DNA of 46,366 nucleotides from a virus (lineage: Duplodnaviria > Heunggongvirae > Uroviricota > Caudoviricetes). The notes under the pieces are model-generated. The model saw nothing but the letters and a program-made list of their open reading frames with translations, did not search any database and was not told the DNA's origin. Shown one piece after another: positions 23,281 through 41,785 of the stretch (positions within the stretch are counted from its first letter, which is position 1; the number at the start of each line of letters is the position of its first letter). A program made the translations under genes and the position numbers. The stretch lies in the IMG/VR virus record IMGVR_UViG_2778261428_000001. One strand, given 5' to 3'.

Positions 23281-25373
23281 CCTCCGGAAGTCAGCCAGGG
23301 GTTAACATCGTCAGTTACTGTTTTCTTCCGTTTTTGTTTTTTAACAGGCGTGGGTACCGGTTCCGGTGAGGGTGACGGTTCGGTACTGTCCGGGACACAC
23401 TCCAGCCAGGTTTCCCGGCTCGCCCACTCCGGTGCATCCGGCCAGCGGATCTTTTCGTATCCATGCAGAATGACCAGAGCCTCGGCATACACCATCAGGT
23501 CAAAAGCTTCGTTGGCACCGCGACCCGGCTTACTCCATTTCCCGTCACTGCTCCGCTCTTCATACGTCAGTTCGTCGTAAAACCAGCTCCCCAGCCAGTC
23601 AGGGAAATGCACATAGCCGGGACCTGGCGAGTCACGCCATAACGCGTTATTCACCCGGTCTTTCAGGGCATCCGTCTGAAGAAGCCAGAGCGGCACATCA
23701 CCTGCGGCCTGCGCCCGTCGGCCCGTTCGTCCGGTGTTATCAGGGAATGTACGGGTGATCAGTTTTGCTCGCCGGATGCTGTCGCCCTTAAACAGGTAAA
23801 TACGTTTACCAAGGCCATCACGACGGCAACGACGCCAGAATTTATAGGCATTATCAGTGACCCCGTCTTCACCGCCGGAGTCCACCGCCATTGCCATCAG
23901 TCGCATTTGTTGAGAAGGGTCGGAGGCCAGCGGCCAGCTTTTATGAAAAACATCCGTCAGCAGGACATCCCAGTCTTCCGGATAGCTGGCCGGATCAATT
24001 CGCTGGCTCTCCCCGTCGCTGTCACCGCGCAATGACTGCGTGATGTTGTAACGATCAATAATCCAGCGTTCGCCACGGCTGCCATAGCCCGTTACCTGAA
24101 CCACAAAACGGCGATGACGTCCCGCCTGCACATCCACTGTCGCCACAAGGAAATTAACGCCATCCGGCACACTGCGGGAAGGAACTGGCTCTGCCCGCTG
24201 CTCAAGCAATTCACTTTTTCGTTGCTCCATGCTGGCGCGGGGAAGATAAGGTAATCCCCAGTCGGTATTGATAACCGTCTTGAGTGTCTCTTCACTTCCG
24301 GTTGTCTCGTATTCCTGTTCTGCAGTAAGCAGTTTGTAAACGAGTTGCGAGAGTGTCTGATAAGCAGCTGCCGGACCCTCCATCCAGAATGACGCAATAC
24401 GTGAACGCCGGGGATCACCATAACGACTGCCATCTGCATTGATGGATTCACCATCCCGTAACCAGACCCCACGTCCGTTCAGCTCGCGTTTTTGTTCAGG
24501 CAAAATCCGTCCTGAACAGGAAGGACACTGAATATAAGCCGCCTCACTTGCCAGCACAGGATCGGCAATATCACGGAAACCAGCAACCACATCGCCGCAG
24601 GGCTGAAAATACTCACCACAGTGTGGACAGGGCCAGTACCAGCGACGGCGATCGCCACGGTTATAGAGCGACAGGATCCCCGTGGTTGGTGGAGCCTCAT
24701 GCGGTGAAGTCCGTCGCCATTTCACATCCTTCACATCCCTGCCGGGGGAACTCTCCACAAGCGTCATACCACTGGACATAAATGTGGTGGTACGTTTTGA
24801 GGCAAGAGAGAAGGCATCCCCCTCACCATCAATATCTTCCGGAAAACGGTCATAATCCGTCAGCGCCACGCATTTATAATCTGATGAAGACATGATATTG
24901 ACTGACGGCCAGCCGATTTTCAGGTAGTTGCCAGCAAGGAATGTTCTGTCATAAACGTTGTTGTCATTTTTGTTCGGACTCAGGCGACTGACCACTTCCG
25001 GGCTGACGCGAAACGTTCTGGCGAGTCGTTTTTTGGAGTGTTCGCGGGCTTTTTCCTCCGTCATCTGAATGATCAGCATATCAGCAGGATCGCAAATCAC
25101 GTTGTAAATCACCCAGCCGTCAATCAGGCCGATAGTCTTGCCGGTTCGTGCCGGGCCAACAAATATCACTGCGTCGTATTCACGCGAGGCCAGGCAGTTC
25201 ATAGGCTCAATAACATACGGTGCCACCAGCGGATCCCACGGGACTGAGTTCCCTGCCCCCATGGGCACCCGCATATACTGAGCAACGGCATCAGCAACCC
25301 GCATTCGTCTCGGTGCGCGAAGGATATAACCTGAATCGGTTCGTGCTGCCTTTGCGGTTTCCTGATTCAGCAT
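23271..25373 (-). CDS. Terminase large subunit (lambda gpA-like)
   Basis: 700 aa; Walker A (VGPARTGKT), lambda-A-type nuclease region; start coupled to small subunit stop. Confidence 0.9.
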   Translation of the reverse strand: MLNQETAKAARTDSGYILRAPRRMRVADAVAQYMRVPMGAGNSVPWDPLVAPYVIEPMNCLASREYDAVIFVGPARTGKTIGLIDGWVIYNVICDPADMLIIQMTEEKAREHSKKRLARTFRVSPEVVSRLSPNKNDNNVYDRTFLAGNYLKIGWPSVNIMSSSDYKCVALTDYDRFPEDIDGEGDAFSLASKRTTTFMSSGMTLVESSPGRDVKDVKWRRTSPHEAPPTTGILSLYNRGDRRRWYWPCPHCGEYFQPCGDVVAGFRDIADPVLASEAAYIQCPSCSGRILPEQKRELNGRGVWLRDGESINADGSRYGDPRRSRIASFWMEGPAAAYQTLSQLVYKLLTAEQEYETTGSEETLKTVINTDWGLPYLPRASMEQRKSELLEQRAEPVPSRSVPDGVNFLVATVDVQAGRHRRFVVQVTGYGSRGERWIIDRYNITQSLRGDSDGESQRIDPASYPEDWDVLLTDVFHKSWPLASDPSQQMRLMAMAVDSGGEDGVTDNAYKFWRRCRRDGLGKRIYLFKGDSIRRAKLITRTFPDNTGRTGRRAQAAGDVPLWLLQTDALKDRVNNALWRDSPGPGYVHFPDWLGSWFYDELTYEERSSDGKWSKPGRGANEAFDLMVYAEALVILHGYEKIRWPDAPEWASRETWLECVPDSTEPSPSPEPVPTPVKKQKRKKTVTDDVNPWLTSGGWL

Positions 25374-25867
25374 TACTCCTCCTGCTGTAATTCCTCCTCA
25401 TCATCCGCACCTGCTTCAGTCACCCGCAGGGCTATCTGATCGCGCAGATCATCAATAATGGACTGAACACGGCTCACAGCGGCAGGCTGCAGACCGCAGT
25501 CACGTTCAAGAATATCCGGTAATGTCTCCAGCACCTGCACGACCGCTTTTGCCCAGATGGCAAACTCCCGTCTGACATCACTGGCCGGAATGAGTTGCGC
25601 CGTTTCCTGTTCGAACTTAAGACGCTCACGTTCAGACTGATACCAGGCTTTGCGCTCATGTGCGTCCATTTCGCCTTCTGCAACCGGCGGTGGTAATGCC
25701 AGAAATGCCGACACAATATCAACCACCCGATAAAGCTTGAGGTTGCTTTCATGCCCCCCTGCAACGGGTAGATTTTGCAGCCTTGCCGCAGCAGTCTGGC
25801 GATGTACACCTGACAGTGCCGCCAATTGACTGATATTCAGCGTCAGATTTTTTAACTCTCGATCCAT
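25373..25867 (-). CDS. Terminase small subunit
   Basis: 164 aa with N-terminal HTH-like segment (LNISQLAALSGVHRQTAAARL) and acidic C-terminus; immediately upstream of and overlapping the large subunit. Confidence 0.65.
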   Translation of the reverse strand: MDRELKNLTLNISQLAALSGVHRQTAAARLQNLPVAGGHESNLKLYRVVDIVSAFLALPPPVAEGEMDAHERKAWYQSERERLKFEQETAQLIPASDVRREFAIWAKAVVQVLETLPDILERDCGLQPAAVSRVQSIIDDLRDQIALRVTEAGADDEEELQQEE

Positions 25868-26039
25868 ACCCGCTCCAGAATGTTTTAAACATGCATCTTG
25901 CGAACGACTTTAGGCAAACGGTGTTAGTGATGAACAAAAAACAATCAAAATCGACACCACAAAAATAAAAATACTGCAATATCAATCTATTACAGTAGTG
26001 GTGATGACGGATGAAATTTCAAAAACTAGCCTTTTTCCG

Positions 26040-26110
26040 CGACGCTCCCGCCCCGTGGCAGGGGCCCCCACCGGGAGGACCCGACAGCCTGACAGCCTGA
26101 CAGCCGTGAT
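26040..26110. repeat. GC-rich tract with direct repeats (GACAGCCT x3); candidate cos/packaging region
   Basis: Sequence cgcgacgctcccgccccgtggcaggggcccccaccgggaggacccgacagcctgacagcctgacagcc lies about 200 bp upstream of the small terminase start. Confidence 0.3.
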
Positions 26111-26241
26111 GAGCATCTGATACAGCGCTTTACATAATGGCATAGGAATAATTCAGAAGGACATCACAGCATGCCCACACAAATTAGTGTGAGTGTCCTG
26201 TTTCTTCCTACGCACAGGACTGACGAGCATGAGGGGAAAAT

Positions 26242-26409
26242 ATGCGAACCATAAATGCCTCATCTTCAGCAATGCAACCGGCATCCGAACAGGACGATAT
26301 TGTAAATTCACCTAATTACGAGGACATTGCAGTAGTTGAATTGCAGCTCTGTATTAGCCTGACAGTGACAGAATGCGATATTGACTCTGTCACAGGTGAA
26401 ATAGTTTGA
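26242..26409 (+). CDS. Small hypothetical protein (YnfO-like position)
   Basis: 55-aa ORF (MRTINASSSAMQPASEQDD...) preceded by GAGGGG Shine-Dalgarno; not in the supplied ORF track (below its length cut-off). Confidence 0.3.
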   Translation: MRTINASSSAMQPASEQDDIVNSPNYEDIAVVELQLCISLTVTECDIDSVTGEIV

Positions 26410-26429
26410 ATGATTAGCAGTTATGATGC

Positions 26430-26636
26430 TCAGTCAACCACCAGGGAATAATCCTTCGAATTCTTATCGTGCTTCACCAACGCTGCCTCAATTGCCCTGA
26501 ATGCTTCCAGAGACACCTGATGTTCTATACATGCAATTACAACATCCGGGTAACTCATAGAAATGGTGCTATTAAGCATATTTTTTACACGAATCAGATC
26601 CAACGAGAGTTCATCAGCAGATTGTTCTTTATTCAT
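26430..26636 (-). CDS. Hypothetical small protein
   Basis: 68-aa ORF; no recognised family. Confidence 0.3.
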
Positions 26637-26936
26637 TTTGTCGCTCCATGCGTTTGCTCGTCATCTAGCGGTTAAAATATTACTTCAAATCTTACTGCAT
26701 AAAAGAGGAAAAGTATGAAAGTTTGAGTACATCGACCTTACATACATCTGTCGGTTGCATATCCCTCCTGGATGCCAGCAAGGCTCAATTTTGTTACGCA
26801 ATCAACACTATTCATCAAAAACAGGCTTAATATTTGACATAAATCATCAACAAAACACAAAGAGGTCAGACCAGATTGAAACAATAAACACGATAATGCT
26901 AACTACGCGCCATCGTATCACATGGAAGGTTTACCA

Positions 26937-27347
26937 ATGGCTCAGGCTGCCATTTTTAAAGAAATATTCGATCAAGTGCGTAAAGATTTAAACTGTGAAT
27001 TATTTTATTCTGAGCTAAAACGTCACAATGTCTCACTTTATATTTACTATTTAGCCACAGATAATATTCACATTGTGTTAGAAAACGACAACATAGTGTT
27101 AGTAAAAGGACTCAAAAAGGTTGTAAATGTTAAATTCTCCAGAAACAAACATCTTATAGAGACCTCCTATAATAAGTTGAAATCAAAAGAAATCACATTT
27201 CAACAATACAGGGAAAATCTTGCTAAAGCAGCAGTTTTCCGATGGGTTACAAATATCCAGGAACACCAAAGATATTACTATGCCTTTGATAACTCATTAC
27301 TATTTACTGAAAGCATCCAGAAAACTACACAGATCTTACCACGCTAA
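26937..27347 (+). CDS. ydfO: DUF1398-family prophage protein YdfO
   Basis: Recalled near-identity to K-12 YdfO from [33 protein letters not shown]...; start taken at the internal Met of the 141-aa ORF. Confidence 0.7.
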
Positions 27348-27498
27348 ACCATAACGTCCGGCTTCTCTCACTCCTGAGCCGGACTGCATTGGTTTAATAA
27401 AAACCATCAACAATTGTGATTTAGATATTCGGAACCATTCAAATATAACAAAACCCCGTAAAAACGAGGTTTATGGATAAATTTTATTATTGAATACA

Positions 27499-27675
27499 TC
27501 AGATTAAATTAATCTTGACATCATAGCTTTCAAGACCCGTCATTTTTTCCCGTGCGGTAAACTGAATACTGGTAACTTCTTTCCCGGTCTTTTTCTTAAG
27601 TTCAATAATTTTTTTTGTTATATATTCAGAAATATCTGCTTCTGCTTTTGTTTTTAAGTTTTCAATATTCATCAT
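27499..27675 (-). CDS. gnsB: GnsA/GnsB-family protein
   Basis: 58-aa ORF found by hand translation: MMNIENLKTKAEADISEYITKKIIELKKKTGKEVTSIQFTAREKMTGLESYDVKINLI; Gns family signature; below ORF track cut-off. Confidence 0.75.
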   Translation of the reverse strand: MMNIENLKTKAEADISEYITKKIIELKKKTGKEVTSIQFTAREKMTGLESYDVKINLI

Positions 27676-27843
27676 TTCCTCTTTTAGTCTGTTATGACTT
27701 TCCAGTTACACAGTAAGTCGATTATATGGTGCAAACGTGTAAAAGATAAGATGAAACATCGCAATAATCAACATACGATAGTCTAAATTTTACACAAACA
27801 GACAAAGAGAATTTTCCTGAATTATCAATACAATAGCATCAAA

Positions 27844-28074
27844 TCAACTCAAGAGCCTTATTGCTGCTTCCAGAATTTCTTCTGAAGTAACATGTCGATC
27901 CGCGGCTACATAAATGACTTTATGATCTCCGGTCAGAGATGGAAACCCTGCGGCCATTACAGTAAGGTGTGTTTTTTCGCCATTTGGATATTCACGCATG
28001 ATGGTGTTAACTCCAGTCATCGCTGGCACTACCACTGCTGGTTCAGAGTTAAAAAAAACTATGATTTTTTTCAT
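27844..28074 (-). CDS. Hypothetical small protein (YnfN position)
   Basis: ORF between gnsB and cspI; start taken at MKKIIVFF. Confidence 0.35.
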   Translation of the reverse strand: MKKIIVFFNSEPAVVVPAMTGVNTIMREYPNGEKTHLTVMAAGFPSLTGDHKVIYVAADRHVTSEEILEAAIRLLS

Positions 28075-28116
28075 GATGTTACCGTAGTATGTGAGTATCC
28101 ATCGAATAGATACCAA

Positions 28117-28142
28117 GCAAAAAAGCTCCCGAAGGAGCCTTC
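28117..28142 (-). terminator. Rho-independent terminator downstream of cspI
   Basis: Minus-strand transcript reads GGCTCCTTCGGGAGC followed by TTTTTTGCTT. Confidence 0.6.
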
Positions 28143-28345
28143 ATTTTCACTTTTTTAAATCCAACGACAGACGGCTGGCATTTAAGTATTGTGAAATATT
28201 ATCAAATGTAATCATCATTGATTTACAAAAGATACATTTTGCCCCGAAAGGATTCATGTCAGAAACATCAAAAGATGATGTTCTATACTGGGAACCATGA
28301 CAACACGGGCATCTAAAGTGAATATGGTTTGTAATATTGTCTACC

Positions 28346-28558
28346 TCAAAGCGCCACTACATGAACAGCGGCAGGACCTTTAGGTCCGTTCTCAATACCA
28401 AATTCAACTTCCTGATTCTCAGTTAATGTTTTGAAATCGTTGCTCTGAATTGCTGAGAAATGGACAAACACATCTTTGCTGCCATCTTTCGGCGTGATGA
28501 AACCAAAACCTTTTTCAGGGTTAAACCATTTCACTAAACCAGTCATTTTGTTAGACAT
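28346..28558 (-). CDS. cspI: Cold shock protein CspI (CspA family)
   Basis: 70 aa, [38 protein letters not shown]... with RNP1/RNP2 motifs; recalled match to CspI. Confidence 0.9.
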
Positions 28559-28921
28559 AATTATTACCTTTTGAAGAAATTAGCCCTTGGGCAGAATGGT
28601 CCGAAAAAAAAATATCAGAGAGAAAAACCAACAAGGAAATCTCAAGAGGTACAAATAATAAAATTATAACAATGACTGCTTCAGATAAATTTGTAACAAA
28701 CCAGAACACCATTAACGCATGATTAACCACCCATAGCAAGGATTACTTTTGTAAAGAAAAACACAGCAATGAAAGAATAGCTTTATTTATTAATAAAACG
28801 TGTCATTCTGATTAAGACCTTTTATCTTACCCTTAAGATTTCAGGAATTTTGGCTCATGGAAGAGTCCTTTTTATTTAAATTTTACATTCCGCGATGTAA
28901 ATGTTCCGATTTAATATTACC

Positions 28922-29945
<1,024 letters not shown>

Positions 29946-29949
<4 letters not shown>

Positions 29950-30257
29950 ATATATTTATGATGAGGACGCTCGTGCTTATTGGCAGGATTTTCAATCTTA
30001 AAGGAGTACTGATGCTGCAGATAAGACTCAACTTTTTCTGACAATTTTTCTGCTACTTCCAGGAAGACTTGCCGGACGCTCCTTCTGGCTGCTGCCTCAT
30101 AAAACTCCAGCGCAGCTCCTTCAACACGGTCCATGGCGACATCCAGGTCAAAAATTTCACCGTCAAAGCGTTCTTTGTCCTGTAAGGCTACAGTTACCGT
30201 AACTTTATTCTCAAAATTACGGACTCCTTTCACAACCAGTTCATAGTCTTGAGTCAT
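29946..30257 (-). CDS. ydfR: DUF1327-family prophage protein YdfR
   Basis: 103-aa ORF between holin and endolysin genes as in Qin. Confidence 0.65.
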
Positions 30258-30261
30258 TGGA

Positions 30262-30477
30262 TTACTCTCCTCTCGCAGCCTTACGCCTGTCTTCTTTAAT
30301 CTTGAAATAAAGATTTGTCAGATACGTCAGCAGGCCAAAAACCAGGCTACCCAGCACACCGATTGCAGCCCACTGTGACGGAGTTACTTTATCGAGTAAC
30401 TGCAATGCCCAGAAACCAGCATTACCCGCCGATGTGCCATAGGCAACACCTGTTGTTAACTTATCCATTGATTTCAT
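30262..30477 (-). CDS. essQ: Holin (phage 21 S-type, class II) with dual-start motif
   Basis: MKSMDKL... dual Met start (holin/antiholin), two TM segments, charged C-terminus ([13 protein letters not shown]). Confidence 0.75.
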
Positions 30478-30696
30478 ATCCTCACCCCGATGTACACGGA
30501 TGGTGCAATATGTTTGAAAAGATCGGAGTCTACGGGGTAGTTTTGACAGCACACGTTGTTCTCAACGGCGCTAAAAAAACATACACATTAAAAATGTGGG
30601 TAATTATTTTGAAAGAAAGTCACATATAAAATAATAATACGAGAAATGTTTTCATATTTAGTGTACTGTATACGGCCATTTATACAGGAAAAGCCT

Positions 30697-30867
30697 ATGT
30701 CAGAACGTAAAGACTCAAAATCACGCCGTAATTATCTCGTTAAATGTTCCTGCCCAAACTGCACCCAAGAGTCAGAACACAGTTTTTCAAGAGTACAAAA
30801 AGGTGCCCTTTTGATCTGCCCTCATTGCAACAAAGTATTCCAGACAAATCTTAAAGCTGTAGCCTGA
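30697..30867 (+). CDS. Small zinc-ribbon protein
   Basis: 56 aa from the internal Met; two CxxC pairs (CSCPNC ... CPHCNK). Confidence 0.4.
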   Translation: MSERKDSKSRRNYLVKCSCPNCTQESEHSFSRVQKGALLICPHCNKVFQTNLKAVA

Positions 30868-30922
30868 TTGATTTTATTAGTAACAAGTATTTTTTATATT
30901 TTAATAATATATTTAAAGCAGA

Positions 30923-30949
30923 TAATAAAAAACCCGCCTGAGCGGGTTT
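30923..30949 (-). terminator. Stem-loop with flanking A/T runs (possible bidirectional terminator)
   Basis: aaaaaacccgcctgagcgggttt; T-run on the minus-strand transcript. Confidence 0.45.
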
Positions 30950-31230
30950 GAGATTGTGGTGCTTTTTGTGGGAGTCATCCACTTACGCACTTTGTTTTGC
31001 GATGCCAGCAGTTAGCTTCTGCTGTGAAACTATTCATGCAGCAAACCTGCACTTCACCACAATGGTTAGCATACTTTTCCTGATTAAGATTTTGCCAAAT
31101 ATGCTGGCCATTGTTTCATGTATTGGACCTCCTTACTTTTTATTAAAGAGATCCAATATTCACTACTCTGTCCGTATCTCTACTCAGGCATCAGCCTTCT
31201 TCGTTATCGTATACAGACGAGCGATGAATT

Positions 31231-31446
31231 TTAATCAGTAATGATGACATTTGCTGCTGCAGGACCTTTAGCACCACTCTCTATAGAGAAGGTAACCTTT
31301 TGACCTTCAAATAAGGTTCGATAATTATCATTCTGAATCGCAGAAAAATGCACAAACACATCTTTACTACCATCAACAGGAGAAATAAAGCCGAAACCTT
31401 TATCAGCGTTAAACCATTTTACTAAACCAGTCATTTTATTTGACAT
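31231..31446 (-). CDS. cspB: Cold shock protein (CspA family), CspB-like
   Basis: 71 aa, [38 protein letters not shown]...; position next to cspF remnant and Q as in Qin. Confidence 0.8.
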
Positions 31447-31756
31447 TCTACATTCCTTAACTTGAGCCTTTCGGCATAAATGGTTTGCATAACAGAAACG
31501 ACTTCGTACTTAATTGGAGAGACTCAAAGAAGGAATAAGTGAATAACACCTGAAATGAGAACTGCTTTAGTAAACTACTTCGTATATCGTCTGTTCTTCA
31601 AACCGACGCAGTCATTAACTCATAGTTGAACATATGAAGCAATGTTTATTTTAGACATCCAGCCACCTTCAACCCTATCAAAAAAGTAGTTTTCTCCAGG
31701 AACGTGTGTATGGTGCACCAGGTTATCAGTATTAAGGAGTTTTTCTGTCCCCTAAA

Positions 31757-31960
31757 ATGACAGGAATTGTCAAAAACTTTGACTACAAAAGCAGCAAAGG
31801 TCTTATATTCCCATCCGATGGCGTATCGATGCCCAGCTTCACGTTTCAGCTCTCAATCTTCGAGATGCAGAAGAAATTACCACAGGATTACGCGTGGAAT
31901 TTTGCCGGATAAATGGTTCGCGTGGACCTTCAACTGCCAATGTTTATCCCGGGATGAGAT
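31757..31960 (+). pseudogene. cspF: cspF-like cold shock gene, frameshifted
   Basis: Frame A encodes [22 protein letters not shown] then diverges; a second frame encodes the CspF-like continuation ...[27 protein letters not shown] with no in-frame stop at the expected end; frameshift near 31825. Confidence 0.5.
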
Positions 31961-31993
31961 TCAATATCTCTATTGCCCCATTTAAAGCACAAA

Positions 31994-32028
31994 AACCCGC
32001 TTATAAGCGGGTTTTCTACTTTTTTCTA
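31994..32028. terminator. Bidirectional rho-independent terminator; candidate tR' for the late transcript
   Basis: aaaaacccgcttataagcgggttttctactttttt: GC stem with T-runs on both strands, about 100 bp downstream of Q. Confidence 0.55.
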
Positions 32029-32054
32029 AACGTCGGATACACAAAGCCCATCGT

Positions 32055-32095
32055 TGAGAAAATCTTATCCATGTTTTTTGAAAAATGCAAACATC
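32055..32095 (-). promoter_or_regulatory. Candidate late promoter PR' (Q-dependent)
   Basis: Minus strand: TTGCAT (-35), 17-bp spacer, TAAGAT (-10), located between the Q stop and the downstream hairpin. Confidence 0.35.
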
Positions 32096-32121
32096 ATGTC
32101 GCCATCTTCAGCAAAAATCAT

Positions 32122-32874
32122 TTATCTCGTCACCTTCCTCAATTGCGCTTCCGCGTATGCTTCTTCCTGCCAGCACTTTGTTACCAGTTTATCAATGACG
32201 TCCGCATACCCCTTATACCACTGATAATCGGTCAGGTCTGGTACCAGCTTCTGGACATGACGTCGTGCCAGCGTGGTCGGTAAACGACTAAACCGGTTTC
32301 CATTACAACGCCCACAAATCTTATATACCGGTACGCCATGAAACCGGGTTCTTTTTTCATCCAGAACAATCCCTTTACCCTTACACCCTCTGCACGCTGT
32401 GCTGACTTCGCCCTTACCATGGCAATGCTGACATAGTTCCTTTACCCATTCTTCCTTGATTACAGATTCCCCGCGTCTGTAGTGTTTCACCACTTCGCGC
32501 AATACATTATAAAATCCCGTACCTGAACAATGCTCACAGCGAGCCTTACTTGCCGCAGACCTGGAGTAATCAGCAAAGGCAAAATTCACGAGGTAAGGAA
32601 TAATCTGTAACCGGCTTTCTTCACTCAATTTGTTCAATGTCGGGTTATCCAGTGCCATCGCGTAATTTAGCAGGCCTTCAATCGCAAACTGAGGGTCCTG
32701 AACACCAACTTTTGCCAGAAATAAGGCCAACCCAAGTGGTGCTTTCGACTGCACCATCCCCTGCGCTGCCATTACATCCGTAATTGTTAAACAACCGGTG
32801 CCTGTCGCTGGAGCGTCATCGCTCAATTTTAGAGATTTTGGGGAGTAATATTTTGGTAAGGCTTCAAGGTTCAT
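32122..32874 (-). CDS. quuQ: Late gene antiterminator Q (phage 82 Q-type)
   Basis: 250 aa with Cys-rich zinc-binding motifs ([32 protein letters not shown]). Confidence 0.85.
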
Positions 32875-32887
32875 GCTCGTTCTCCAC

Positions 32888-33976
32888 TTACGCCAGTACG
32901 CCAGTTGCCAGCGCGCGATCGATAAAACGAAATATCAGCTCCAGTTGGGAGCCATACTTCTCTTCAAATGCCACTGTATCCGTATGCAGCTCGTTGTGAT
33001 GCTTTCTGCACAAAGGCAACACAAAGAGATCATGTGCTTTTGTTCCCATTCCGCCCTGCCCGTGACCAATCAGATGATGCGGATCGTCGGCTGGCATACC
33101 GCAGCAAGCACACGGCTGTGTCTTAACCCAACGAGTGTATTTCTCCTTAACCCAGCGGCGACGTTTAGGCAGCTTCATGAAAGATTCCGGAGACTCTGGA
33201 TCAACGGTGATGCTTACCACCGTCTTTTCCTGTGGTGGTTTTTGTTGCTGGTGGGCGTAAGGCAACGGTGCAAGATTTTTTGTGCGTTGTTTCAATATGC
33301 TGGTGGCGGTCTGCTCTCCCGGTACGATGTCGCTTTCGCGGTACACCGAGCAGATTTTTTCCGCTGGTAATCCCAGCGAACGACGCGATACAGCCTCAGG
33401 TAGTGCATCCACCACCTGATTGCAGACCGCCCACCAGGATAATTCAGCCAAAGATAATTCCCGCTCCTGCGTACCGCTTATTGCGTGACGGATGACGTCA
33501 ATCACCCATGCTGTCAGATTTTGTTGAGCAAGCAGCTCCAGTGATTCCGATGTCTGGTCACGCAGTTGGTTGTCGCAGTGCCAGCACAACACCATTGCGC
33601 CGGTACCATAACGGTGAATGACTGTTTCAGTGTGATGGTAATCGCCATTAGGCCACTGGCAGGATGTAACATGACGTAATAGCCAGTCAGACAATGCGCC
33701 AACGCCGCCAGCAGCACGAATCACCCGTTCGTTACTAAAAAACGGCAGCAATGTTTTGTCTTCCGCCAGCGGCTGGCGAACGGCAGGAACGACTCCGGAT
33801 GGCAGATTACGCATGCTTTTTGGTTCCGGTTCCACCAGCACTCGAGGATTATGAAATATCTGTATGGATTCACGGCCCGGCTTAAGGACCACCAGCCCAA
33901 GCTCAGGCACCAGAACAGGTCTAAGTAATACCCGCACGTTACCTCCAGATCCGTTGCTGGAAAGTGCGGGACGCAC
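32888..33976 (-). CDS. ydfU: DUF968-family protein YdfU (C-terminal HNH/zinc-binding-like motif)
   Basis: 362 aa; C-terminus QPCACCGMPADDPHHLIGHGQGGMGTKAHDLFVLPLCRKHHNELH; position upstream of Q. Confidence 0.7.
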   Translation of the reverse strand: MRPALSSNGSGGNVRVLLRPVLVPELGLVVLKPGRESIQIFHNPRVLVEPEPKSMRNLPSGVVPAVRQPLAEDKTLLPFFSNERVIRAAGGVGALSDWLLRHVTSCQWPNGDYHHTETVIHRYGTGAMVLCWHCDNQLRDQTSESLELLAQQNLTAWVIDVIRHAISGTQERELSLAELSWWAVCNQVVDALPEAVSRRSLGLPAEKICSVYRESDIVPGEQTATSILKQRTKNLAPLPYAHQQQKPPQEKTVVSITVDPESPESFMKLPKRRRWVKEKYTRWVKTQPCACCGMPADDPHHLIGHGQGGMGTKAHDLFVLPLCRKHHNELHTDTVAFEEKYGSQLELIFRFIDRALATGVLA

Positions 33977-34217
33977 GTGGTGGGCGTTCGGAGTAAGGCA
34001 ATCTGACTGAGATTATCCAGTGACGGTAGTCGAGACTAAGGGCTTTCTTAACCTCGTATCCGCGCCTGCGGTAAGAATGAATCAGCCATTCGGCCTGTTC
34101 TGCAGTGCATGGAGGGTGCTGGAACCATTCAGACTTGAATGCGTGAGAATACCGCCCGTGCGTGCAGGCAAGAACGGGCGAATTATCAGAATTGTAATAT
34201 TTTGCGTTGCGTGCCAT
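33939..34217 (-). CDS. Hypothetical protein
   Basis: 92-aa ORF overlapping the ydfU start region; may be non-coding. Confidence 0.25.
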   Translation of the reverse strand: MARNAKYYNSDNSPVLACTHGRYSHAFKSEWFQHPPCTAEQAEWLIHSYRRRGYEVKKALSLDYRHWIISVRLPYSERPPRASRTFQQRIWR

Positions 34218-34283
34218 CGGTTTTCTCCGGTGGCACGGTGTTACTCAGCGGGAGTTCAGCCCCGCGCAAGATTGTAGATGAGT

Positions 34284-34535
34284 TTATTCTTCTGAAAAAG
34301 CAGAAAAGCCAGCTTTTATTCCGATCTCTTTCAATGCCTGTAATGAAGTGACAAACTCACCTTCGCGCAAGATAAATCCGTCCGTGACCCGAGCATCCAC
34401 AAAATTAATTAACGCAGCCCCATTCTTTCGCAAACACAGAATGCGGTAATGACTAACAATGTTTCCATTTTCAACGCACACAGCATAGAGGCCATCTTCA
34501 CAAAAAATTTTACGCAGTTCTTCGATGTTCATCAT
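34284..34535 (-). CDS. rem: Small prophage protein (Rem-like)
   Basis: 83-aa ORF immediately downstream of the hok terminator, as rem in Qin. Confidence 0.55.
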   Translation of the reverse strand: MMNIEELRKIFCEDGLYAVCVENGNIVSHYRILCLRKNGAALINFVDARVTDGFILREGEFVTSLQALKEIGIKAGFSAFSEE

Positions 34536-34652
34536 CAGAATCCTTCCGGATAATTAGCTCTCCCCTTTAAGGGACCATCCCTCTTATCCCTGCGCGCTAC
34601 TTAAGTATTTTTGATTCTATTCCGGCACCGTCCAGAACTTCAAACGCGTTGA

Positions 34653-34683
34653 AAATAAAAACAAAAACCCGCCGAAGCGGGTT
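34653..34683 (-). terminator. Rho-independent terminator of hok mRNA
   Basis: Minus-strand transcript reads AACCCGCTTCGGCGGGTT followed by TTTGTTTTTATTTT. Confidence 0.6.
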
Positions 34684-34751
34684 AAGTGCGGGTGCGTTGA
34701 GGATGCCTGCCACATCAGAGGTGGCGAGGGATTTCTCCCTCGCCGGGTCTC

Positions 34752-34907
34752 TTACTCCTCAGGTTCGTAAGCTGTGAAGACAGCGACCTCCGTCTGGCCG
34801 GTTCGGATTCGTACCTCGCAGAGGTCTTTCCTCGTTACCAGTGCCGTCACTATGACGGTTAAACAGATGACGATCAGGGCGATTAACATCGCCTTTTGCT
34901 GCTTCAT
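34752..34907 (-). CDS. hokD: Hok-family membrane toxin (type I toxin)
   Basis: 51-aa product MKQQKAMLIALIVICLTVIVTALVTRKDLCEVRIRTGQTEVAVFTAYEPEE; the longer overlapping frame upstream is consistent with a mok-like leader ORF. Confidence 0.85.
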   Translation of the reverse strand: MKQQKAMLIALIVICLTVIVTALVTRKDLCEVRIRTGQTEVAVFTAYEPEE

Positions 34908-35535
34908 AGCCTGCTTCTCCTTGCCTTCCGGCACGTAAGAGGCTAACCTACATGTGTCTAGCATGAAATTGGCCTCAGATTAATGTTAAGCGTCTTGCCG
35001 GACGCGTAATGTTAACTGGGGCTTTTCTCTATCTGCCTTTGGTGTTCATGCCTGAGGCAGATAGCCTCAAGCACCCGCAGCAATTCTACTTAACTCACGT
35101 CACCTCGCCAATATAAAATCAATCAGAAAGGCGATCCGTAAGAACAACAGCAAGGCAATAAATTGCCATTACAGCCGCAATAGCTAGCGCACATTTGAGA
35201 ACCAGCACGACAACCTCCTGTATTGGACGTACACCAGTCCTGATGAATATGAGGCTGTCTCGTCAGTGATTCAATACAACTATTGGGTATAGTTTCTCTG
35301 ATTTTTTCTGTGGAAATGGGGCTCAACCACTAGTCACCACCAGCACTTCTTTTAATACGCAAAGTCCGACACAAGCTAACCTTCTAGTCCGCTTTGAGCG
35401 AGGAGCGGAAGTTTATAGACATTTCTTGCACTGCGTTGTCTAATCAATTAGGAGCTGGTAACGTGCCCTGAGTAAATAAGCCCGCATATACGGGCGCTAT
35501 GTACGCTCTGTTTTGTATGGTGCAAAGTGCCCCGT

Positions 35536-37350
35536 CTATCTGAAACGCTCAAACAGTGCAACCATTCCTTCAGGAGCGATATCTCTGACCTGGGCTCCTT
35601 GCCGCTCAACCCACTTACCAGCTATATGTGAAGGGGTATCCTGACCTAAAATTTCGAAGACGAAAACCGTCTTATCGAAGTATCGAACGCATTTAAGATG
35701 AGTGTTTATGTAGGACTTAAGCGGTTCTGAAAGTCCTGAGCGTCCTACCCGATCAGAGATGTCTTGGAACATCTGGTCAAGGTTCTTTCCAGCGTGGTTC
35801 GCTTCGTGATCAACACCAGTTATATGGAAGCCGTTATAAGATAAAGCCTTGCTTCCGAAAATCTCCTGAACTCTTGTTGCAGTATGCGCATTTTCAGCAA
35901 CCCCTACAAGAACATAGCCCTTGTGTCCTCTGCCGATATTAGCAATAGCAGCGCAGGTCTCCATAATTTTTTCGAAGGAGCGTTCATCAAAGGAAGGTGA
36001 TGGGTCTAAAGTATAGAAACCTTGTTTAAAATCGTAGGCCGCCTGCTCAGTTATTGAGTTAGTGAGTAAATTTTGGAGCTTCGTGATCCAATGAACTTTT
36101 GCAGGATCTGGATTTTGATCGTTTTCAAAAAAGCCCTGAATCCAACCAATTATTGAATCGACCATTCTACTCCGGTTGTCAGCCCCCCATCTCCCTCCAT
36201 CTTGAACCTGAATATTCCTACCGCAATCTTTCAGCCGCCCAATGAGGCCCGCACTATCTGAAACCACCATACCCCTTTTAATTATCAGGTCATGCATGGC
36301 GAGAAAGACCACCTGAAAGTAACGGGGGACTGGATTACCACCATTTCCGTTAGGAAAAATCAAACCAGAGAATGTCGTTTGAGCCTGACTAAGAAGTAGG
36401 ATTATCGCATCATGTACTCTTTGATAATCAAGATCGACTAGCTCCCCGGTTCTCTTTTTAATAGCTTGATCAATCGCTTCGAATCTTGCTTTGCTGGCTA
36501 AAGCTTCCGGGGATATTGCTCCATAGTAGTCATCTAGAAGCTCTGTACGCGAGGCCAGAGGTTTGTCAGAAACCATATAAGCAAGAATGTCCGCCACTAT
36601 CTCTTCATCCCGGCTCTGTCTTAACTGCTCCTTCGTCAATATTCCGTTAACAATCCAGAAGACGCTATCGGCACTAATGCCGTAGTCTAAATCCTTGTTC
36701 GTGATGCTAATTTTTTTCATCTCGCTTAAGAGCAAGAGATCCGCGTTAGATGTGTCACCACGAACTCTTGCGGAGATCTTCCGAACACATTCCGCAAACA
36801 CATTTGTAGCACCTGCTGCACGCAACTCCTGTCGTGAGAGCTGACGTCCACCTGAGTTAATTCGCCTGAACACTTCCTCAACTGAGTCTCTCTCGGCTGC
36901 TTCATAAATTGAAAGCGGGACAGGATATGATGCTATTGCAAGACACTGGCTTCGATCAAGGAGTGGCATCTTCTGATCAATGACTCCGCGATCTAATAGG
37001 TCTTTCGTCGTCGCGAACGTATTTAAATCAAAGTAGAATCCATTAAATGAAAAATCGTTCGAGATAAAAGACATGATGGCATTCATACGCTGCATCCCAT
37101 CAATAATCTCGAGAGTGCCGTCTTTTCTCCCAAGAGGTTCTGCTAACAAAATGATAGGTATCGGGAATCCCTTGATTATCGAGTCAATAAAATTTTGTTT
37201 TTCCTCAATAGTCCAAATCAATTTACGTTGATACTGTCGATTCACAACGTATTTTTTATCCTGATAGTTGATAAACACTCGCTCAACTTGTTCGCCACGA
37301 ACTATTAGTTCTTGTTGTAACGTTGCCATTATGTTGCCGTCCTGAGCCAT
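35536..37350 (-). CDS. DUF262 (ParB/GmrS-like) domain protein with probable Schlafen/AlbA_2-like C-terminal domain; candidate anti-phage defence or type IV restriction-like enzyme
   Basis: 604 aa; N-terminal DUF262 signature (NRQYQRKLIWTIEEKQNFIDSIIKGFPIPIILL ... LEIIDGMQRMNAI); C-terminal segment resembling AlbA_2 core (ANIGRGHKGYVLVGVAENAH); bounded by AT-rich tracts (37351..37765 and 34965..35535). Confidence 0.7.
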   Translation of the reverse strand: MAQDGNIMATLQQELIVRGEQVERVFINYQDKKYVVNRQYQRKLIWTIEEKQNFIDSIIKGFPIPIILLAEPLGRKDGTLEIIDGMQRMNAIMSFISNDFSFNGFYFDLNTFATTKDLLDRGVIDQKMPLLDRSQCLAIASYPVPLSIYEAAERDSVEEVFRRINSGGRQLSRQELRAAGATNVFAECVRKISARVRGDTSNADLLLLSEMKKISITNKDLDYGISADSVFWIVNGILTKEQLRQSRDEEIVADILAYMVSDKPLASRTELLDDYYGAISPEALASKARFEAIDQAIKKRTGELVDLDYQRVHDAIILLLSQAQTTFSGLIFPNGNGGNPVPRYFQVVFLAMHDLIIKRGMVVSDSAGLIGRLKDCGRNIQVQDGGRWGADNRSRMVDSIIGWIQGFFENDQNPDPAKVHWITKLQNLLTNSITEQAAYDFKQGFYTLDPSPSFDERSFEKIMETCAAIANIGRGHKGYVLVGVAENAHTATRVQEIFGSKALSYNGFHITGVDHEANHAGKNLDQMFQDISDRVGRSGLSEPLKSYINTHLKCVRYFDKTVFVFEILGQDTPSHIAGKWVERQGAQVRDIAPEGMVALFERFR

Positions 37351-37765
37351 TTATAGAGATATAACGATTAGGCAAAACCTGCCCTACATCACACGTACGT
37401 ATCATAATAATTGAAAAGTCATAAAAATAAATATTCTTCTACAGCATCGCCCGGCATACTTCAAATGCACAAAAATAAAACACTATAAATCAATATCTTA
37501 TGGAATTATTTTTGTAAAGGTGAATTGAACTTGTTACTCACTAAATTCTCCTGAATTTATGTTTTTTTTGCTAATGGACAATAATGTTGAACTGTAGATA
37601 TTTGTTTTAATTGGAATTAATTTTCAGAAAATGCTCGTATCTATGACAGCTTTTGGCACAAAGCGGACAACCACGCCAGATCTACCCTGTGCCATGAAAA
37701 ATGAGAATGTCAATTCACTCCTGAACTAATGCTTTTTAATCTAGTAACGTCTAAAATACCTAACA

Positions 37766-38167
37766 TTATCCCTGATAAAATGCCAGTATGCGCTGCATAA
37801 CTTCACTCATCCGGCACTCGCGACAGATTATGTTTAGGCGACTGTCGTAGCGACGTATTTCTCCATCAGGTAACGACCAGATAAGGTCCGGATCAACCAC
37901 AGCTGTTTTCTTCACCTTTGCCCTCGAGAGTTTTTTGCGGGCGTTTTGCCAGTCCTTACGCGCCTGTTCAGACGGGAATAACCCGTAGCCGGAGTTGTAT
38001 ACATCGCCACTGGCTACCAGCTCTCTGGCAAGAACGCTCATCAGATATCTAGTCGCACCTGTTTTAGCTTCCAGTTGCCGTAACGTCTCACGACCGCTCT
38101 GGCGCACGAGTTCCACCACCTGCCCTTTAATTTTTTCCCGCTCTTCTTGTGTAAAAACTTTTGCCAC
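37766..38167 (-). CDS. Hypothetical protein (position of replication protein P or nin-region gene)
   Basis: 133-aa basic ORF downstream of the O-like gene; no family recognised. Confidence 0.35.
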   Translation of the reverse strand: MAKVFTQEEREKIKGQVVELVRQSGRETLRQLEAKTGATRYLMSVLARELVASGDVYNSGYGLFPSEQARKDWQNARKKLSRAKVKKTAVVDPDLIWSLPDGEIRRYDSRLNIICRECRMSEVMQRILAFYQG

Positions 38168-38207
38168 AAGTCCCCCTTAAAATTACCTCATGACCTGAAA
38201 TCAAAAC

Positions 38208-39173
38208 TTATCCTCTGAAACCAGGCGGAATTTCTGTATCCGGTTCAGAAATATGATTAACACAACGCTGTACAGGTGAACGCCCTAGGCGGATGACCAG
38301 TTCGTCCCATTTTTCGCGGAGCTTTGACGGGCTCATGATGTTTTTTACCCAGAATGGATCCCGCTGTACCCGACCAAACATTTCACAAATTTGTCTGTGG
38401 CTTCTGCCATCCAGCATCCGCATTGTGCGCACATCATTGGCCCAGACAGTCCAGTTAGGCTCTTTTGGTCGCATGATCTCGCCATCATCACTGGCGGCCT
38501 GTTCGTAGAGACCCACGATCCGCCCCCATATCCACTGCGCACACGCCAGATCCTCCTGGCTACCCCACTGGCGTTTTTTCGCACTAAACACAACTGCGCC
38601 AGGGTGCCGGATTAAAAAATCCTGTTCAGCCGTCTGCGGGTCCGGTTGCGAAGCTTCCGGACGAAAAGTGTTTTTATTCTCTGTAGTAATCTCTGTTGTA
38701 TTCTCTGTAGGATCATCGGGCCATTTTGACCCGATGACATTGGGTCGTTTTGAACCAATGGAGCGTTTCATTTTGACCTCTTCCATCGTGTCATTTTGAC
38801 CTGATGGAGCGGCGCATTTTGAACCGATGGATTCGCTCAATTTGCCATCATCTAAAAGCTCGCTCCCATAGTTAATCGTGTAGAAATTGGTCATATCGCG
38901 CTTTGATTTATTGAGCTTTTCACAACGCAAAAGCCCCAGCGTTTTCAGACTTGCAAACGCGCGCTTTAACGTTGACTCTGACCAGAATGGAAACTGTTCC
39001 AGCCATTGTTCCGTTGTGTTGTAAATCCAGCGAACACCATCACATTCCATGCCGGAATTGGTATCTCTCAACCAGTAATGCAACTGCTGCAACACAATGG
39101 CTTCATTTAAGCCAATCTTCATCGCAAGCTGTGTGTTTATAACCAGTGGGCGTTCAGCAAAAAGAAGGCTCAT
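38208..39173 (-). CDS. Replication initiation protein (lambda O-like, iteron-binding N-terminus plus C-terminal helicase-loader recruitment domain)
   Basis: N-terminal winged-helix-like region; origin iterons lie inside the gene and encode a repeated IGSK peptide; start taken at an internal Met after the upstream gene's stop (ORF track extends to 39227). Confidence 0.6.
   Translation of the reverse strand: MSLLFAERPLVINTQLAMKIGLNEAIVLQQLHYWLRDTNSGMECDGVRWIYNTTEQWLEQFPFWSESTLKRAFASLKTLGLLRCEKLNKSKRDMTNFYTINYGSELLDDGKLSESIGSKCAAPSGQNDTMEEVKMKRSIGSKRPNVIGSKWPDDPTENTTEITTENKNTFRPEASQPDPQTAEQDFLIRHPGAVVFSAKKRQWGSQEDLACAQWIWGRIVGLYEQAASDDGEIMRPKEPNWTVWANDVRTMRMLDGRSHRQICEMFGRVQRDPFWVKNIMSPSKLREKWDELVIRLGRSPVQRCVNHISEPDTEIPPGFRG
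38720..38835. repeat. Replication origin iterons (5 direct repeats, about 23-bp period) inside the O-like gene
   Basis: cattttgacccgatgaca / cgttttgaaccaatggag / cattttgacctcttccatcg / cattttgacctgatggag / cattttgaaccgatggat, starting near 38722, 38745, 38769, 38792 and 38815; a second short repeat ttctctgtag occurs twice at 38686-38710. Confidence 0.6.
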
Positions 39174-39675
39174 AATTCCATCCAGCTTTTTGTTGGTATT
39201 GCTGTCGATACGCAAGTTTGAAAGCAATTGCTTTTTCTATAAGTTCGTCAGTTTCACGATCCACTACGGCAGGATCAGCAAAAAGCAGTCCGGACTCCAC
39301 CACATCGCCATATTCTTTGTTTAACCCGGCGATCATGTACGTGATGCTTTTTCCGTCACTAATTTCACGATACAACCTGAAATCATTAATCCGGATAGCC
39401 TCCATAATTGCAGGCACTAGCGCCGTGAACTTTTCACGCTTATCCCTAGTGTCGATAGCCTTCCAGCGTTCGAATATCTTCACTCGATTAACGCCAAGCG
39501 CTCGCTGATCAACCGCGCCACCTTCATCTGTGACACGCTGAACATCGATGTTCGGGCGCTCTTTCAAAGCCCAGAATGCTTCAGTGATTAATATCGTCGC
39601 CTGCTCCTGTGTCATTCCTGGTCGACATATCCAGGCATCCAGAGCCTCACGAGCCTGTTCAGGAGTGATTTTCAT
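39154..39675 (-). CDS. Hypothetical protein in the cII-equivalent position (possibly YdaT-like)
   Basis: 173-aa ORF immediately downstream of the cro-like dicC, translationally coupled; family not confidently recognised. Confidence 0.4.
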   Translation of the reverse strand: MKITPEQAREALDAWICRPGMTQEQATILITEAFWALKERPNIDVQRVTDEGGAVDQRALGVNRVKIFERWKAIDTRDKREKFTALVPAIMEAIRINDFRLYREISDGKSITYMIAGLNKEYGDVVESGLLFADPAVVDRETDELIEKAIAFKLAYRQQYQQKAGWNYEPSFC

Positions 39676-39886
39676 TGTTCAACCGCCCCGCCCGCTTCGT
39701 CTTACGATATTCGTCATAAACTTTGGGATCATACTGAAGCTCCCCGCCAGATGCCTCCTGTAGACGCATCGCGCGACCTTCAGGAACTAGCTCTTGCCAT
39801 TGAGAAACAGCAGATGGGTCAACGCCAGCAGCTTTCGCTACTTTGGCTTTCGTACCGTAAAAATTAATTACGTCTGATTTAAACAT
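39659..39886 (-). CDS. dicC: Cro-like repressor DicC
   Basis: C-terminal region LVPEGRAMRLQEASGGELQYDPKVYDEYRKTKRAGRLNNENHS recalled as DicC; divergent from dicA; start taken at MFKSD (ORF track extends to 39913). Confidence 0.7.
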   Translation of the reverse strand: MFKSDVINFYGTKAKVAKAAGVDPSAVSQWQELVPEGRAMRLQEASGGELQYDPKVYDEYRKTKRAGRLNNENHS

Positions 39887-39963
39887 CGCACCTCCAATAT
39901 TGAGTTTTCTCAATGCTAATCACTCAAGGAATCTCAAGTCAAGGGTTATTAAGATATCTAAAT
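39887..39963. promoter_or_regulatory. Divergent promoter/operator region of the dicA-dicC immunity switch
   Basis: 77-bp intergenic region containing the inverted repeat ATTGAG-TTTT-CTCAAT (39899..39914) and repeated TCAAG(G) motifs. Confidence 0.45.
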
Positions 39964-40371
39964 ATGAACGAGAAAACTTTAGGTCAACGCATTAGAGAAA
40001 GACGTAAGCAGGTAGGCTTAAGTCAAAACGGTTTAAGCAAAGCTGCTGGCGTATCTGGCTCATCAATTTCATTATGGGAAAGTGACCATACAGCCCCGCG
40101 CGGGCAAAATTTGCATCGCCTCGCCGAGGTATTGCAATGTTCACCAACCTGGATACTGTTTGGCGACGAGGACAAAACACCAGCTCCCCCTGTTTCACTC
40201 GATAGTGCCTTAGACTTATCGGAAGATGAGTTAGAGATGCTGCGTTTGTATCGCGCACTTCCTAAATCAGAGCAACAAGCACAACTCAGCGAACTCCGCG
40301 CCCGCGTTGAGAATTTTAATCGCCTGTTCACCGAGCTATTAGAGGCTCGCAAACGCAACAAGCATCAATAA
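39964..40371 (+). CDS. dicA: cI-like HTH (XRE family) repressor DicA
   Basis: HTH segment LGQRIRERRKQVGLSQNGLSKAAGVSGSSISLWE and conserved C-terminal block (LQCSPTWILFGDEDK ... RARVENFNRLFTELLEARKR); start taken at MNEKTLG. Confidence 0.8.
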   Translation: MNEKTLGQRIRERRKQVGLSQNGLSKAAGVSGSSISLWESDHTAPRGQNLHRLAEVLQCSPTWILFGDEDKTPAPPVSLDSALDLSEDELEMLRLYRALPKSEQQAQLSELRARVENFNRLFTELLEARKRNKHQ

Positions 40372-40563
40372 TCATCCCTTCACAAAATTTTAAAGCCTTA
40401 CATTTCAATGTATTGGCTTTATCTTGCGCCAATACTTGAGTTTTCTCATCAAAAAACCTTGACGAAAAATAATGAGAAAACTAAATTACCTCCATCAACA
40501 CACCGCACGGTGTTCTCAGCAAACAGTTCCGCTACCCCGGCGTTAAGGGGAAATGAGGTCAGC

Positions 40564-40719: not shown

Positions 40720-40720
40720 T

Positions 40721-41616: not shown

Positions 41617-41785
41617 GAAGTGAATTTTGTGATGTGGTGAATGCGGCTGAGCGCACGCGGAACAGTTAAAACCAAAAACAGTGTTATGGGTGGATTCTCT
41701 GTATCCGGCGTTAATTGTTAACTGGTTAACGTCACCTGGAGGCACCAGGCACTGCATCACAAAATTCATTGTTGAGGACGCGATA

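Follow-up and report, generated by a model that had tools for sequence, protein, structure and literature searches.

A probable Qin-type Q/PR'/tR' late-control cassette beside a decayed cspF gene in an Escherichia coli lambdoid prophage

The window, a stretch of 46,366 nucleotides of viral DNA (IMG/VR record IMGVR_UViG_2778261428_000001), represents an E. coli prophage of the lambdoid Qin type, and its late genes are on the minus strand. The gene order was that of K-12 Qin: hokD, rem, ydfU, Q (ydfT/quuQ), cspF, cspB, ynfU, holin, ydfR, lysozyme, spanin and cspI. Since Q and the lysis genes were both located on the minus strand, this is the late strand. Positions 1..35251 were 99.8% identical to a prophage in NZ_CP031105.1, for which a complete set of terminase, portal, capsid and tail genes was annotated downstream of the lysis genes. 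The annotation of that genome was overlaid on 1..35251 only; collinearity ends there, the two sequences diverge to the right of this position and the annotation is thus not applicable to the remainder. For the 751 bases around the feature under study, two complete genomes gave 100% identity and 214 records at least 99%. The late-control region has been without annotation so far, and the cspF pseudogene was already annotated. The features of the region, with the basis of each assignment in brackets, are as follows.

28922..30477, minus strand: lysis cassette with holin (essD/essQ type), ydfR, lysozyme rrrQ and spanin rzpQ (ORFs, annotation)
30930..30949, no strand assigned: second hairpin terminator, between cspB and the lysis genes (listed in the minus-strand scan)
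31215..31607, minus strand: cspB with a long cspA-type 5' UTR (Rfam RF01766, 158.8 bits; CSD domain)
31745..31947, plus strand: cspF pseudogene (K-12 alignment, NCBI annotation, allele counts)
31984..31991, minus strand: U-rich tail of the putative tR', from the last U of a five-U run, then GUGCUUU
31987..32055, minus strand: predicted terminated leader RNA of about 69 nt (predicted start and K-12 3' end)
31992..32015, no strand assigned: putative tR' hairpin, 10-bp stem AAAACCCGCT/AGCGGGTTTT with loop TATA (listed in the plus-strand scan; fold)
32047..32055, minus strand: predicted +1..+9, AACGATGGG, pause element AACGAT plus GGG discriminator (identity with lambda)
32062..32067, minus strand: -10 hexamer TAAGAT of the putative PR' (TAAAAT in K-12, TAGGAT in other variants)
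32068..32084, minus strand: 17-nt spacer, candidate Q-binding element (invariant columns; analogy with lambda)
32085..32090, minus strand: -35 hexamer TTGCAT of the putative PR' (sequence; invariant in 15 Qin-type variants)
32122..32874, minus strand: Q antiterminator of the ydfT/quuQ type, 250 aa (ORF, Pfam, annotation)

The Q protein matched Pfam PF03589 with 182.9 bits against a cutoff of 26.7, and DnaJ_CXXCXGXG was also matched. In an identical genome, the gene is annotated as antitermination protein. PMC9388147 describes three Q families that are unrelated to each other, and PF03589 is that of lambda; the late regulatory cassette of this family consists of a Q gene, PR', a Q-binding element, a sigma-dependent pause element, a terminator and the late genes. 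Identity amounted to 33% with lambda Q and 36% with phi80 Q. The zinc 'arm' of the protein carried an insertion of 48 aa with two extra CXXCXGXG motifs, an insertion common to phi80 Q. In lambda, this arm of Q makes contact with both the Q-binding element and sigma region 4 (PMC9388147). The Q gene lay immediately upstream of the candidate promoter on the same strand; its stop codon occupied 32124..32122 and the -35 hexamer began after 31 intergenic bases. Downstream of the terminator, the lysis and morphogenesis genes followed on the same strand as Q within the overlay of 1..35251, with cspB as the first intact late-strand gene after tR'. The initial annotation had placed cold-shock genes between Q and the lysis cassette, and cspB and the cspF remnant were indeed found there.

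A sigma70-type promoter directly after Q was identified in the sequence and could be aligned with PR' of lambda, P22 and phi80. It had earlier been described as a good sigma70-like promoter. The arrangement TTGCAT-17-TAAGAT was present on the minus strand as claimed, but 'good' was an overstatement, with the two hexamers matching 7 of 12 sigma70 consensus positions. TTGCAT-17-TAAGAT was not among the listings of a generic promoter scan of the window. The layout of the window, CATGATGTTTGCAT-TTTTCAAAAAACATGGA-TAAGAT-TTTCTC-AACGATGGG, aligned position for position with the lambda layout, CATGATATTGACT-TATTGAATAAAATTGGG-TAAATT-TGACTC-AACGATGGG. The composite TTGNNT-N17-TANNNT-N6-AACGAT had a single occurrence in the window, and none of 100 shuffles contained it. 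It is this position-for-position match with lambda PR', including AACGATGGG, and not the consensus alone, that lifts the promoter above chance.

The nonamer AACGATGGG was located six bases past the -10 hexamer, in the register and with the sequence of lambda PR' +1..+9. It was invariant in the 15 variants and was present at most lambda-family Q loci. A hexamer resembling a -10 element at +1..+6, followed by G-rich positions +7..+9, was thus found in the sequence itself. The A at 32055 is the predicted start site by analogy with lambda. A -35-like TTGACT lies directly upstream of the pause element in lambda; it was not conserved in the window, which has TTTCTC at that place. Within the spacer, TTTTCAAAAAA (32084..32074) showed no change among the variants; the spacer is the candidate Q-binding site, as judged by its position. 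The lambda Q-binding element is located between -35 and -10 (PMC4914094; PMC9388147). At lambda PR', the gap from the -10 hexamer to the start site is 6 nt (PMC7876045). The -10-like element at +1..+6 is rebound by sigma70 there, the pause occurs at +16/+17 and GGG at +7..+9 is the discriminator (PMC5001585; PMC7876045).

On the minus strand, 31 bases separated AACGATGGG from the hairpin, which spanned +41..+64, so that the pause element was followed by an intrinsic terminator ahead of the late genes. The fold energy was -23.5 kcal/mol with z = -3.3. The hairpin was bidirectional, with T-runs flanking both sides, and the minus-strand sequence after it began UGUGCUUU. These data bear out the strong bidirectional hairpin that had been noted within about 40 nt downstream of the promoter: the stem begins 40 nt past the predicted start and T-runs are present on both strands. 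Its former coordinates, 31994..32028, covered the hairpin but included the plus-strand T-run, and the stem itself is 31992..32015. The 3' end of the RNA in the window would be expected near 31987, and the resulting leader of about 69 nt would be the counterpart of lambda 6S RNA.

Two known RNAs were considered as identities of the leader and rejected. PasD is tied to PF03589 Q genes within 10 kb (2026 preprint); PasD1 of E2348/69 begins 285 nt after a 247-aa gene without a PF03589 match and has a different promoter. In two other loci, STnc100 follows the PR'-tR' module; it was absent from the window and from lambda. A search of Rfam at a permissive threshold returned no credible family for the leader RNA; chance-level matches of rnk_pseudo and RsmY overlapped the hairpin.

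RNA ends from K-12 were available for the orthologous site. The Term-seq data of Adams et al. 2021 contained an 'orphan' 3' end at NC_000913.3 1642356 (-), directly after the orthologous hairpin, with read counts of 103,591 (LB OD 0.4 sheet) and 55,368 (second condition). The listed K-12 sequence ended with ...AAAACCCGCTGATGAGCGGGTTTTGTGC, which is the K-12 copy of the hairpin plus its tail, and the 3' end was the C of GGGUUUUGUGC. The position of the 3' nucleotide in the listed 61-mers was checked against sgrS. No further minus-strand 3' end was present in the Term-seq tables between 1642356 and 1644572, and the count at 1642356 exceeded those of the two nearest upstream 3' ends. It was also higher than that of the upstream hokD 3' end. 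Initiation at a nearby promoter is therefore favoured. The K-12 start would be 1642422 by the same analogy, giving an RNA of 67 nt. No entry for a start site of the K-12 orthologue was found in the Cappable-seq supplements or in the Rend-seq, RNET-seq and nascent-RNA papers examined. A plus-strand 3' end, 1641060, was present in the K-12 Term-seq data at the site orthologous to the second hairpin, 30930..30949. In the literature searched, Shiga-phage pR' work included, no description of PR' was found for the Qin/quuQ/ydfT late promoter.

Conservation was analysed in a close set of 80 viral contigs whose Q shared at least 95% identity with that of the window; they comprised 22 distinct downstream sequences. 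The region from -35 to about +27 was nearly invariant. Unchanged parts were the -35 hexamer, the first 11 spacer bases, the framework of the -10 hexamer and AACGATGGGC. The linker and the hairpin sequence were variable, with the linker being the least conserved part of the module. Beyond the hairpin, the DNA was unrelated between groups and encoded cspF/cspB, two kinds of holin, a lambda-type lysozyme and others. As read from the sequences, a functional module that ends at a mosaic joint shows this pattern. Pairing in the hairpin was kept in 91% of cells, compared to 26-65% with partners slid. Four of its pairs had changed on both sides, and none of 500 shuffles reached the covariation score. 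The order of elements was also that of the window in ten phages with Q 33-42% identical, and most of 80 species-representative Enterobacterales genomes shared the layout (lambda-family Q, 36-98% identical). A hairpin terminator followed in 63 of 73 distinct sequences. The stem ended at a median of +63 (interquartile range 58-66.5), and in the window at +64.

A separate observation concerned the start of the predicted transcript. Its first bases were complementary to a segment at about +19..+27, and both segments co-varied across the lambda-family Q cassettes. The 5' arm corresponds to the transcribed pause element (+1..+5; AACG in the window, 32055..32052) and the 3' arm lies at about +19..+27 (CGUU in the window, 32032..32029). 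Matched pairs of arms were AACGA/UCGUU, AAUGA/UCAUU, AACGG/CCGUU, AACAA/UUGUU, UAACA/UGUUA, UAGUG/CACUA and CAUG/CAUG. The longest perfect stem averaged 4.41 bp for matched arms of the 73 distinct sequences and 3.70 bp for permuted ones, with 0 of 2,000 permutations as high, in a test that is inflated by kinship between the sequences. The 25 class representatives, which were picked after the pattern was seen and carry the same inflation, gave 4.4 bp versus 3.5 bp (0 of 20,000 permutations as high) and stems of at least 5 bp in 44% of matched compared to 12% of mismatched pairs. In an unfitted MAFFT alignment of 18 sequences, five named pairs were formed in 88% of cells versus 24-49% when slid, and three pairs had changed on both sides. 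RNAalifold returned no stable consensus structure for this stem, which is thermodynamically weak and has covariation as its support. It is tentatively proposed, and on balance doubtful, that late transcripts of lambda-family Q loci, that of the window included, carry a selected 5'-terminal stem. If true, the pause-element sequence would be constrained both as DNA, for sigma binding, and as RNA, and the stem might act after Q loading or shield the long late mRNA at its 5' end. A limited check of the literature on pausing in lambda and phage 82 found no mention of such a stem.

Taken together, the region is read, with a probability of roughly 85%, as a Qin-type Q/PR'/tR' late-control cassette on the minus strand with an inactivated cspF on the plus strand. 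The basis of this reading is the sequence elements, homology, conservation, the preserved hairpin structure and the in vivo 3' end of K-12. The data support the PR'/tR' cassette as an ordinary, hitherto unannotated member of the lambda-type class. The initial annotation had already proposed a PR'/tR' pair here, a proposal now strengthened by the PF03589 Q, the lambda pause element, the conservation, a hairpin stem with compensatory changes, and the RNA 3' end in K-12.

The following working model, from which transcription start, pausing, Q binding and read-through under Q are inferred, is based on lambda PR' (PMC9388147). E. coli RNA polymerase with sigma70 would initiate constitutively at about 32055 from TTGCAT-17-TAAGAT. 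Sigma70 would then rebind AACGAT plus GGG (+1..+9), holding the polymerase at about +16/+17. In the absence of Q, the polymerase would escape and stop at the hairpin 32015..31992, yielding a transcript of about 69 nt. When Q occupies its spacer site, it would load onto the paused polymerase and convert it to a termination-resistant form. The modified polymerase would pass tR' and the second hairpin, 30949..30930. Late transcription would run antisense over the cspF remnant before continuing into cspB, the lysis genes and a morphogenesis region of about 27 kb.

Two other readings of the promoter and hairpin were weighed. The promoter and terminator may chiefly form a small-RNA gene, the RNA of about 69 nt acting in trans like StxS, beside or in place of control by Q. 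This is improbable. The abundance of the 3' end in uninduced K-12 would fit such a gene, as would the A-rich linker (AGAAAAAAGUAGAAAA) and U-rich tail of the window RNA, and termination of a PR' transcript has a precedent in StxS (PMC7547250). However, it is this linker, from the pause region to the hairpin, that varied most among the variants, and conservation falls on the parts that Q loading requires. The RNA matched no Rfam family, and no Hfq or target data were found for it.

Very improbable is the reading in which the hairpin is a mere shared terminator of two converging units, early/Q and cspF-ynfS, with the promoter an inactive PR' relic and the K-12 3' end originating from transcripts begun upstream of Q. 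A bidirectional hairpin between converging genes is consistent with it, as are the decayed state of the K-12 Qin prophage, the match to 7 of 12 consensus positions and the missing start-site entries for the K-12 orthologue in the data sets examined. The hairpin is certainly also the terminator for the converging cspF unit. A converging-terminator role alone nevertheless leaves the conserved promoter and pause element unexplained. Both were invariant while their flanks diverged, including in inducible and Stx2c-converting phages (Q at least 92% identical), and the architecture recurred throughout the Q family. The K-12 3' ends, with none other at 1642356-1644572 and the higher count at the hairpin, also fit close initiation. 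The late-control cassette remains the preferred reading of the promoter and hairpin.

On the opposite strand, cspF converges on the tR' hairpin and was broken at several positions. The frame from 31757 encoded 22 residues of CspF, then left the cspF frame and stopped at 31910..31912. The remaining 42 residues of CspF were in frame from 31822, in a frame that was open to 32283. Alignment with K-12 cspF traced the frameshift claimed in the initial annotation to a single T absent between 31821 and 31822 (K-12 GATGGTCGT). The TTG start codon of K-12 cspF was CTG at 31745. Relative to K-12, a deletion of 258 bp with its junction at 31946/31947 had removed the last three cspF codons, the stop codon and the whole of ynfS, a confirmed small protein in K-12 (PMC6001520). 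The loss of the normal stop had been noticed before and its cause, now seen to be this deletion, had not been identified. An intact ORF of about 70 codons with a complete cold-shock domain was thus not found for cspF.

The NCBI pipeline labels the identical sequence as 'frameshifted; incomplete'. Among 5,426 complete E. coli genomes, 214 carried the frameshift allele and 212 the deletion junction, each counted by matching 54-mers across the lesion or junction only. The recurrence of the same lesions excludes a sequencing error as the source of the frameshift, and cspF is a true and stable pseudogene allele in about 4% of complete E. coli genomes. It had been left as a pseudogene or a sequencing error, and of the two the pseudogene stood, in agreement with the NCBI label. 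That the gene is intact and the frameshift an error of sequencing or assembly can be dismissed on the sequence data: single-base indels are a frequent type of sequencing error, but the 1-bp deletion and the 258-bp junction recur in complete genomes, the absent T lies outside any homopolymer (GATGG-CGT) and the 3' end and stop codon of the gene are missing too.

About one in three complete E. coli genomes carries this prophage family, and coordinates of its late switch are now given. The abundant 'orphan' 3' end of K-12 would be explained as tR' of Qin. Members of the lambda Q family usually have a short leader, about 60-70 nt long, and the 194 nt of lambda are exceptional. The Q plus PR' module (Q about 95% identical) was also present in Stx2c-converting phages, where it would control the expression of late genes and toxin. 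The cspF lesion is a small case of cargo-gene decay beside a conserved control element. The current understanding of Q antitermination is unchanged by these results.

Compared to known systems, the cassette resembled the Q-PR'-6S RNA-tR' arrangement of lambda, in which Q also belongs to PF03589 and the promoter directly follows Q. Lambda and the window shared an identical 12-mer, CTCAACGATGGG, at -3..+9, the same spacing from -10 to the start and an intrinsic terminator ahead of the lysis genes. They differed in the -35 hexamer, which was TTGCAT in the window and TTGACT in lambda, in the sequence of the spacer that holds the Q-binding element and in the length of the leader, with about 69 nt in the window and 194 nt in lambda. 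Window Q also differed from lambda Q by the 48-aa insertion in the zinc arm, and the interval from tR' to the holin gene contained cold-shock genes in the window and an ORF-64-type gap in lambda.

The phi80 pR' (NC_021190) has an annotated -35 hexamer, TTGCAT, as in the window, together with an annotated Q site. A 17-nt spacer, the -10 hexamer TAGATT, the pause element AACGCTGGG and a terminator about 45-75 nt downstream complete the phi80 region. The phi80 Q (gp17) has a four-CXXC arm as in window Q, yet their identity is only 36%. The annotated Q site of phi80 is TCGCGGA, whereas the window has TTTTCAA at the same position, which implies a different Q specificity between the two. The spacer sequence, the absent TTGACT and the 48-aa arm insertion suggest that the Q of the window has a distinct specificity of the phi80 type.

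StxS is a constitutive short PR' RNA that ends at the first terminator in lysogens (PMC7547250), as predicted for the window RNA. Its promoter region is different. The K-12 Qin intergenic region cspF-ynfS-ydfT is orthologous to that of the window and about 93% identical in promoter, pause element and hairpin. K-12 Qin has intact cspF and ynfS and the better -10 hexamer TAAAAT, whereas cspF is broken in the window and the -10 hexamer is TAAGAT. Conversely, the morphogenesis genes have been lost from K-12 Qin and are present in the window.

The predicted PR' transcript opens with an RNA version of the pause element, and this 5' stretch showed complementarity to a segment lying about 19-27 nt further downstream. 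In the window, the putative pairing arms identified by complementarity were:

32052..32055 with 32029..32032, minus strand: 5' pairing arms

Both arms co-varied across the compared loci and phages carrying lambda-family Q cassettes (L003, L086, L087, L089-L094 and L095-L174). Matching arm pairs among these cassettes included AACGA/TCGTT, AATGA/TCATT, AACGG/CCGTT, AACAA/TTGTT, TAACA/TGTTA and TAGTG/CACTA. The co-variation of the two arms was supported by controls in which partners were permuted or slid, but the putative stem itself is weak.

The RNA family STnc100 was identified with Rfam in two other species. In both loci it shares its strand with Q and lies some 240 nt past that gene, downstream of the PR'-tR' module:

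L104, 1697..1893, Q strand: STnc100
L156, 1753..1945, Q strand: STnc100

The same position was occupied by tRNA genes in L151, L112, L115 and phage YeP3. With STnc100 or tRNA genes present there in several loci, the first slot 3' of the terminator tR' appears to be a frequent location of RNA cargo.

Downstream of tR', K-12 Term-seq data held a further minus-strand 3' end, 1642188 (-), antisense to ynfS, with 87,904 reads in one condition. It lies within the 258 bp that are absent from the window; the window allele has lost this 3'-end site. A second bidirectional hairpin (AAACCCGCTCAGGCGGGTTT) was located between ynfU and cspB, on the path of the late transcript, and a very abundant 'orphan' 3' end was recorded 113 nt downstream of cspB:

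30930..30949: second bidirectional hairpin
~31116..31118 (K-12 1641224/1641226), minus strand: 'orphan' 3' end past cspB, K-12 Term-seq

At the K-12 counterpart of the hairpin, Term-seq placed a 3' end of plus-strand (ynfU) RNA at 1641060. The 'orphan' 3' end past cspB was covered by 604,404 and 1,233,565 reads. Its terminal sequence in K-12, ...AAGGAGGTCCAATACAT, had no U-tract, and a possible stem, GGATCTCTT/AAGGAGGTCC, was found 5' of it. This end may represent a processed or protected end of the cspB 3' UTR.

Two observations concerned the minus strand upstream of Q:

~34205 (K-12 1644572), minus strand: K-12 Term-seq 'orphan' 3' end, rem-ydfU interval
34662..34743, minus strand: IsrK-like match between hokD and rem, Rfam

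The rem-ydfU end, with 64,702 and 47,630 Term-seq reads in K-12, was situated at a hairpin that spans the start codon of a 92-aa ORF (33939..34217) and lacks a U-tract. IsrK is an sRNA of a Salmonella prophage. The match to it was weak (25.7 bits, E = 0.017) and fell below the Rfam gathering score of 50.

The late half of the prophage (1..35251) showed 99.8% identity to NZ_CP031105.1 and held a complete set of morphogenesis genes, whereas Qin of K-12 lacks the full set. The early region (35252..42052) was mosaic, differed from NZ_CP031105.1 and included:

41560..41611, plus strand: DicF

Compared with lambda Q, the window Q (32122..32874, minus strand) carried a 48-aa insertion at residues ~119-166. 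Lying within the zinc-ribbon 'arm', the insertion adds two further CXXCXGXG motifs, which correspond to a DnaJ-type zinc module. A long arm was present in eight of ten sampled family members, including the Q of phi80; the exceptions were lambda Q and P22 Q with a short arm. A Q about 95% identical to that of the window was found in isolated phages, among them Stx2c-converting phages:

L084: mEp460
L085: Stx2c_EH0430, Stx2c-converting

In the isolated phages, including the Stx2c-converting ones, the module of PR', pause element and terminator was the same as in the window, but the DNA beyond the hairpin was different.
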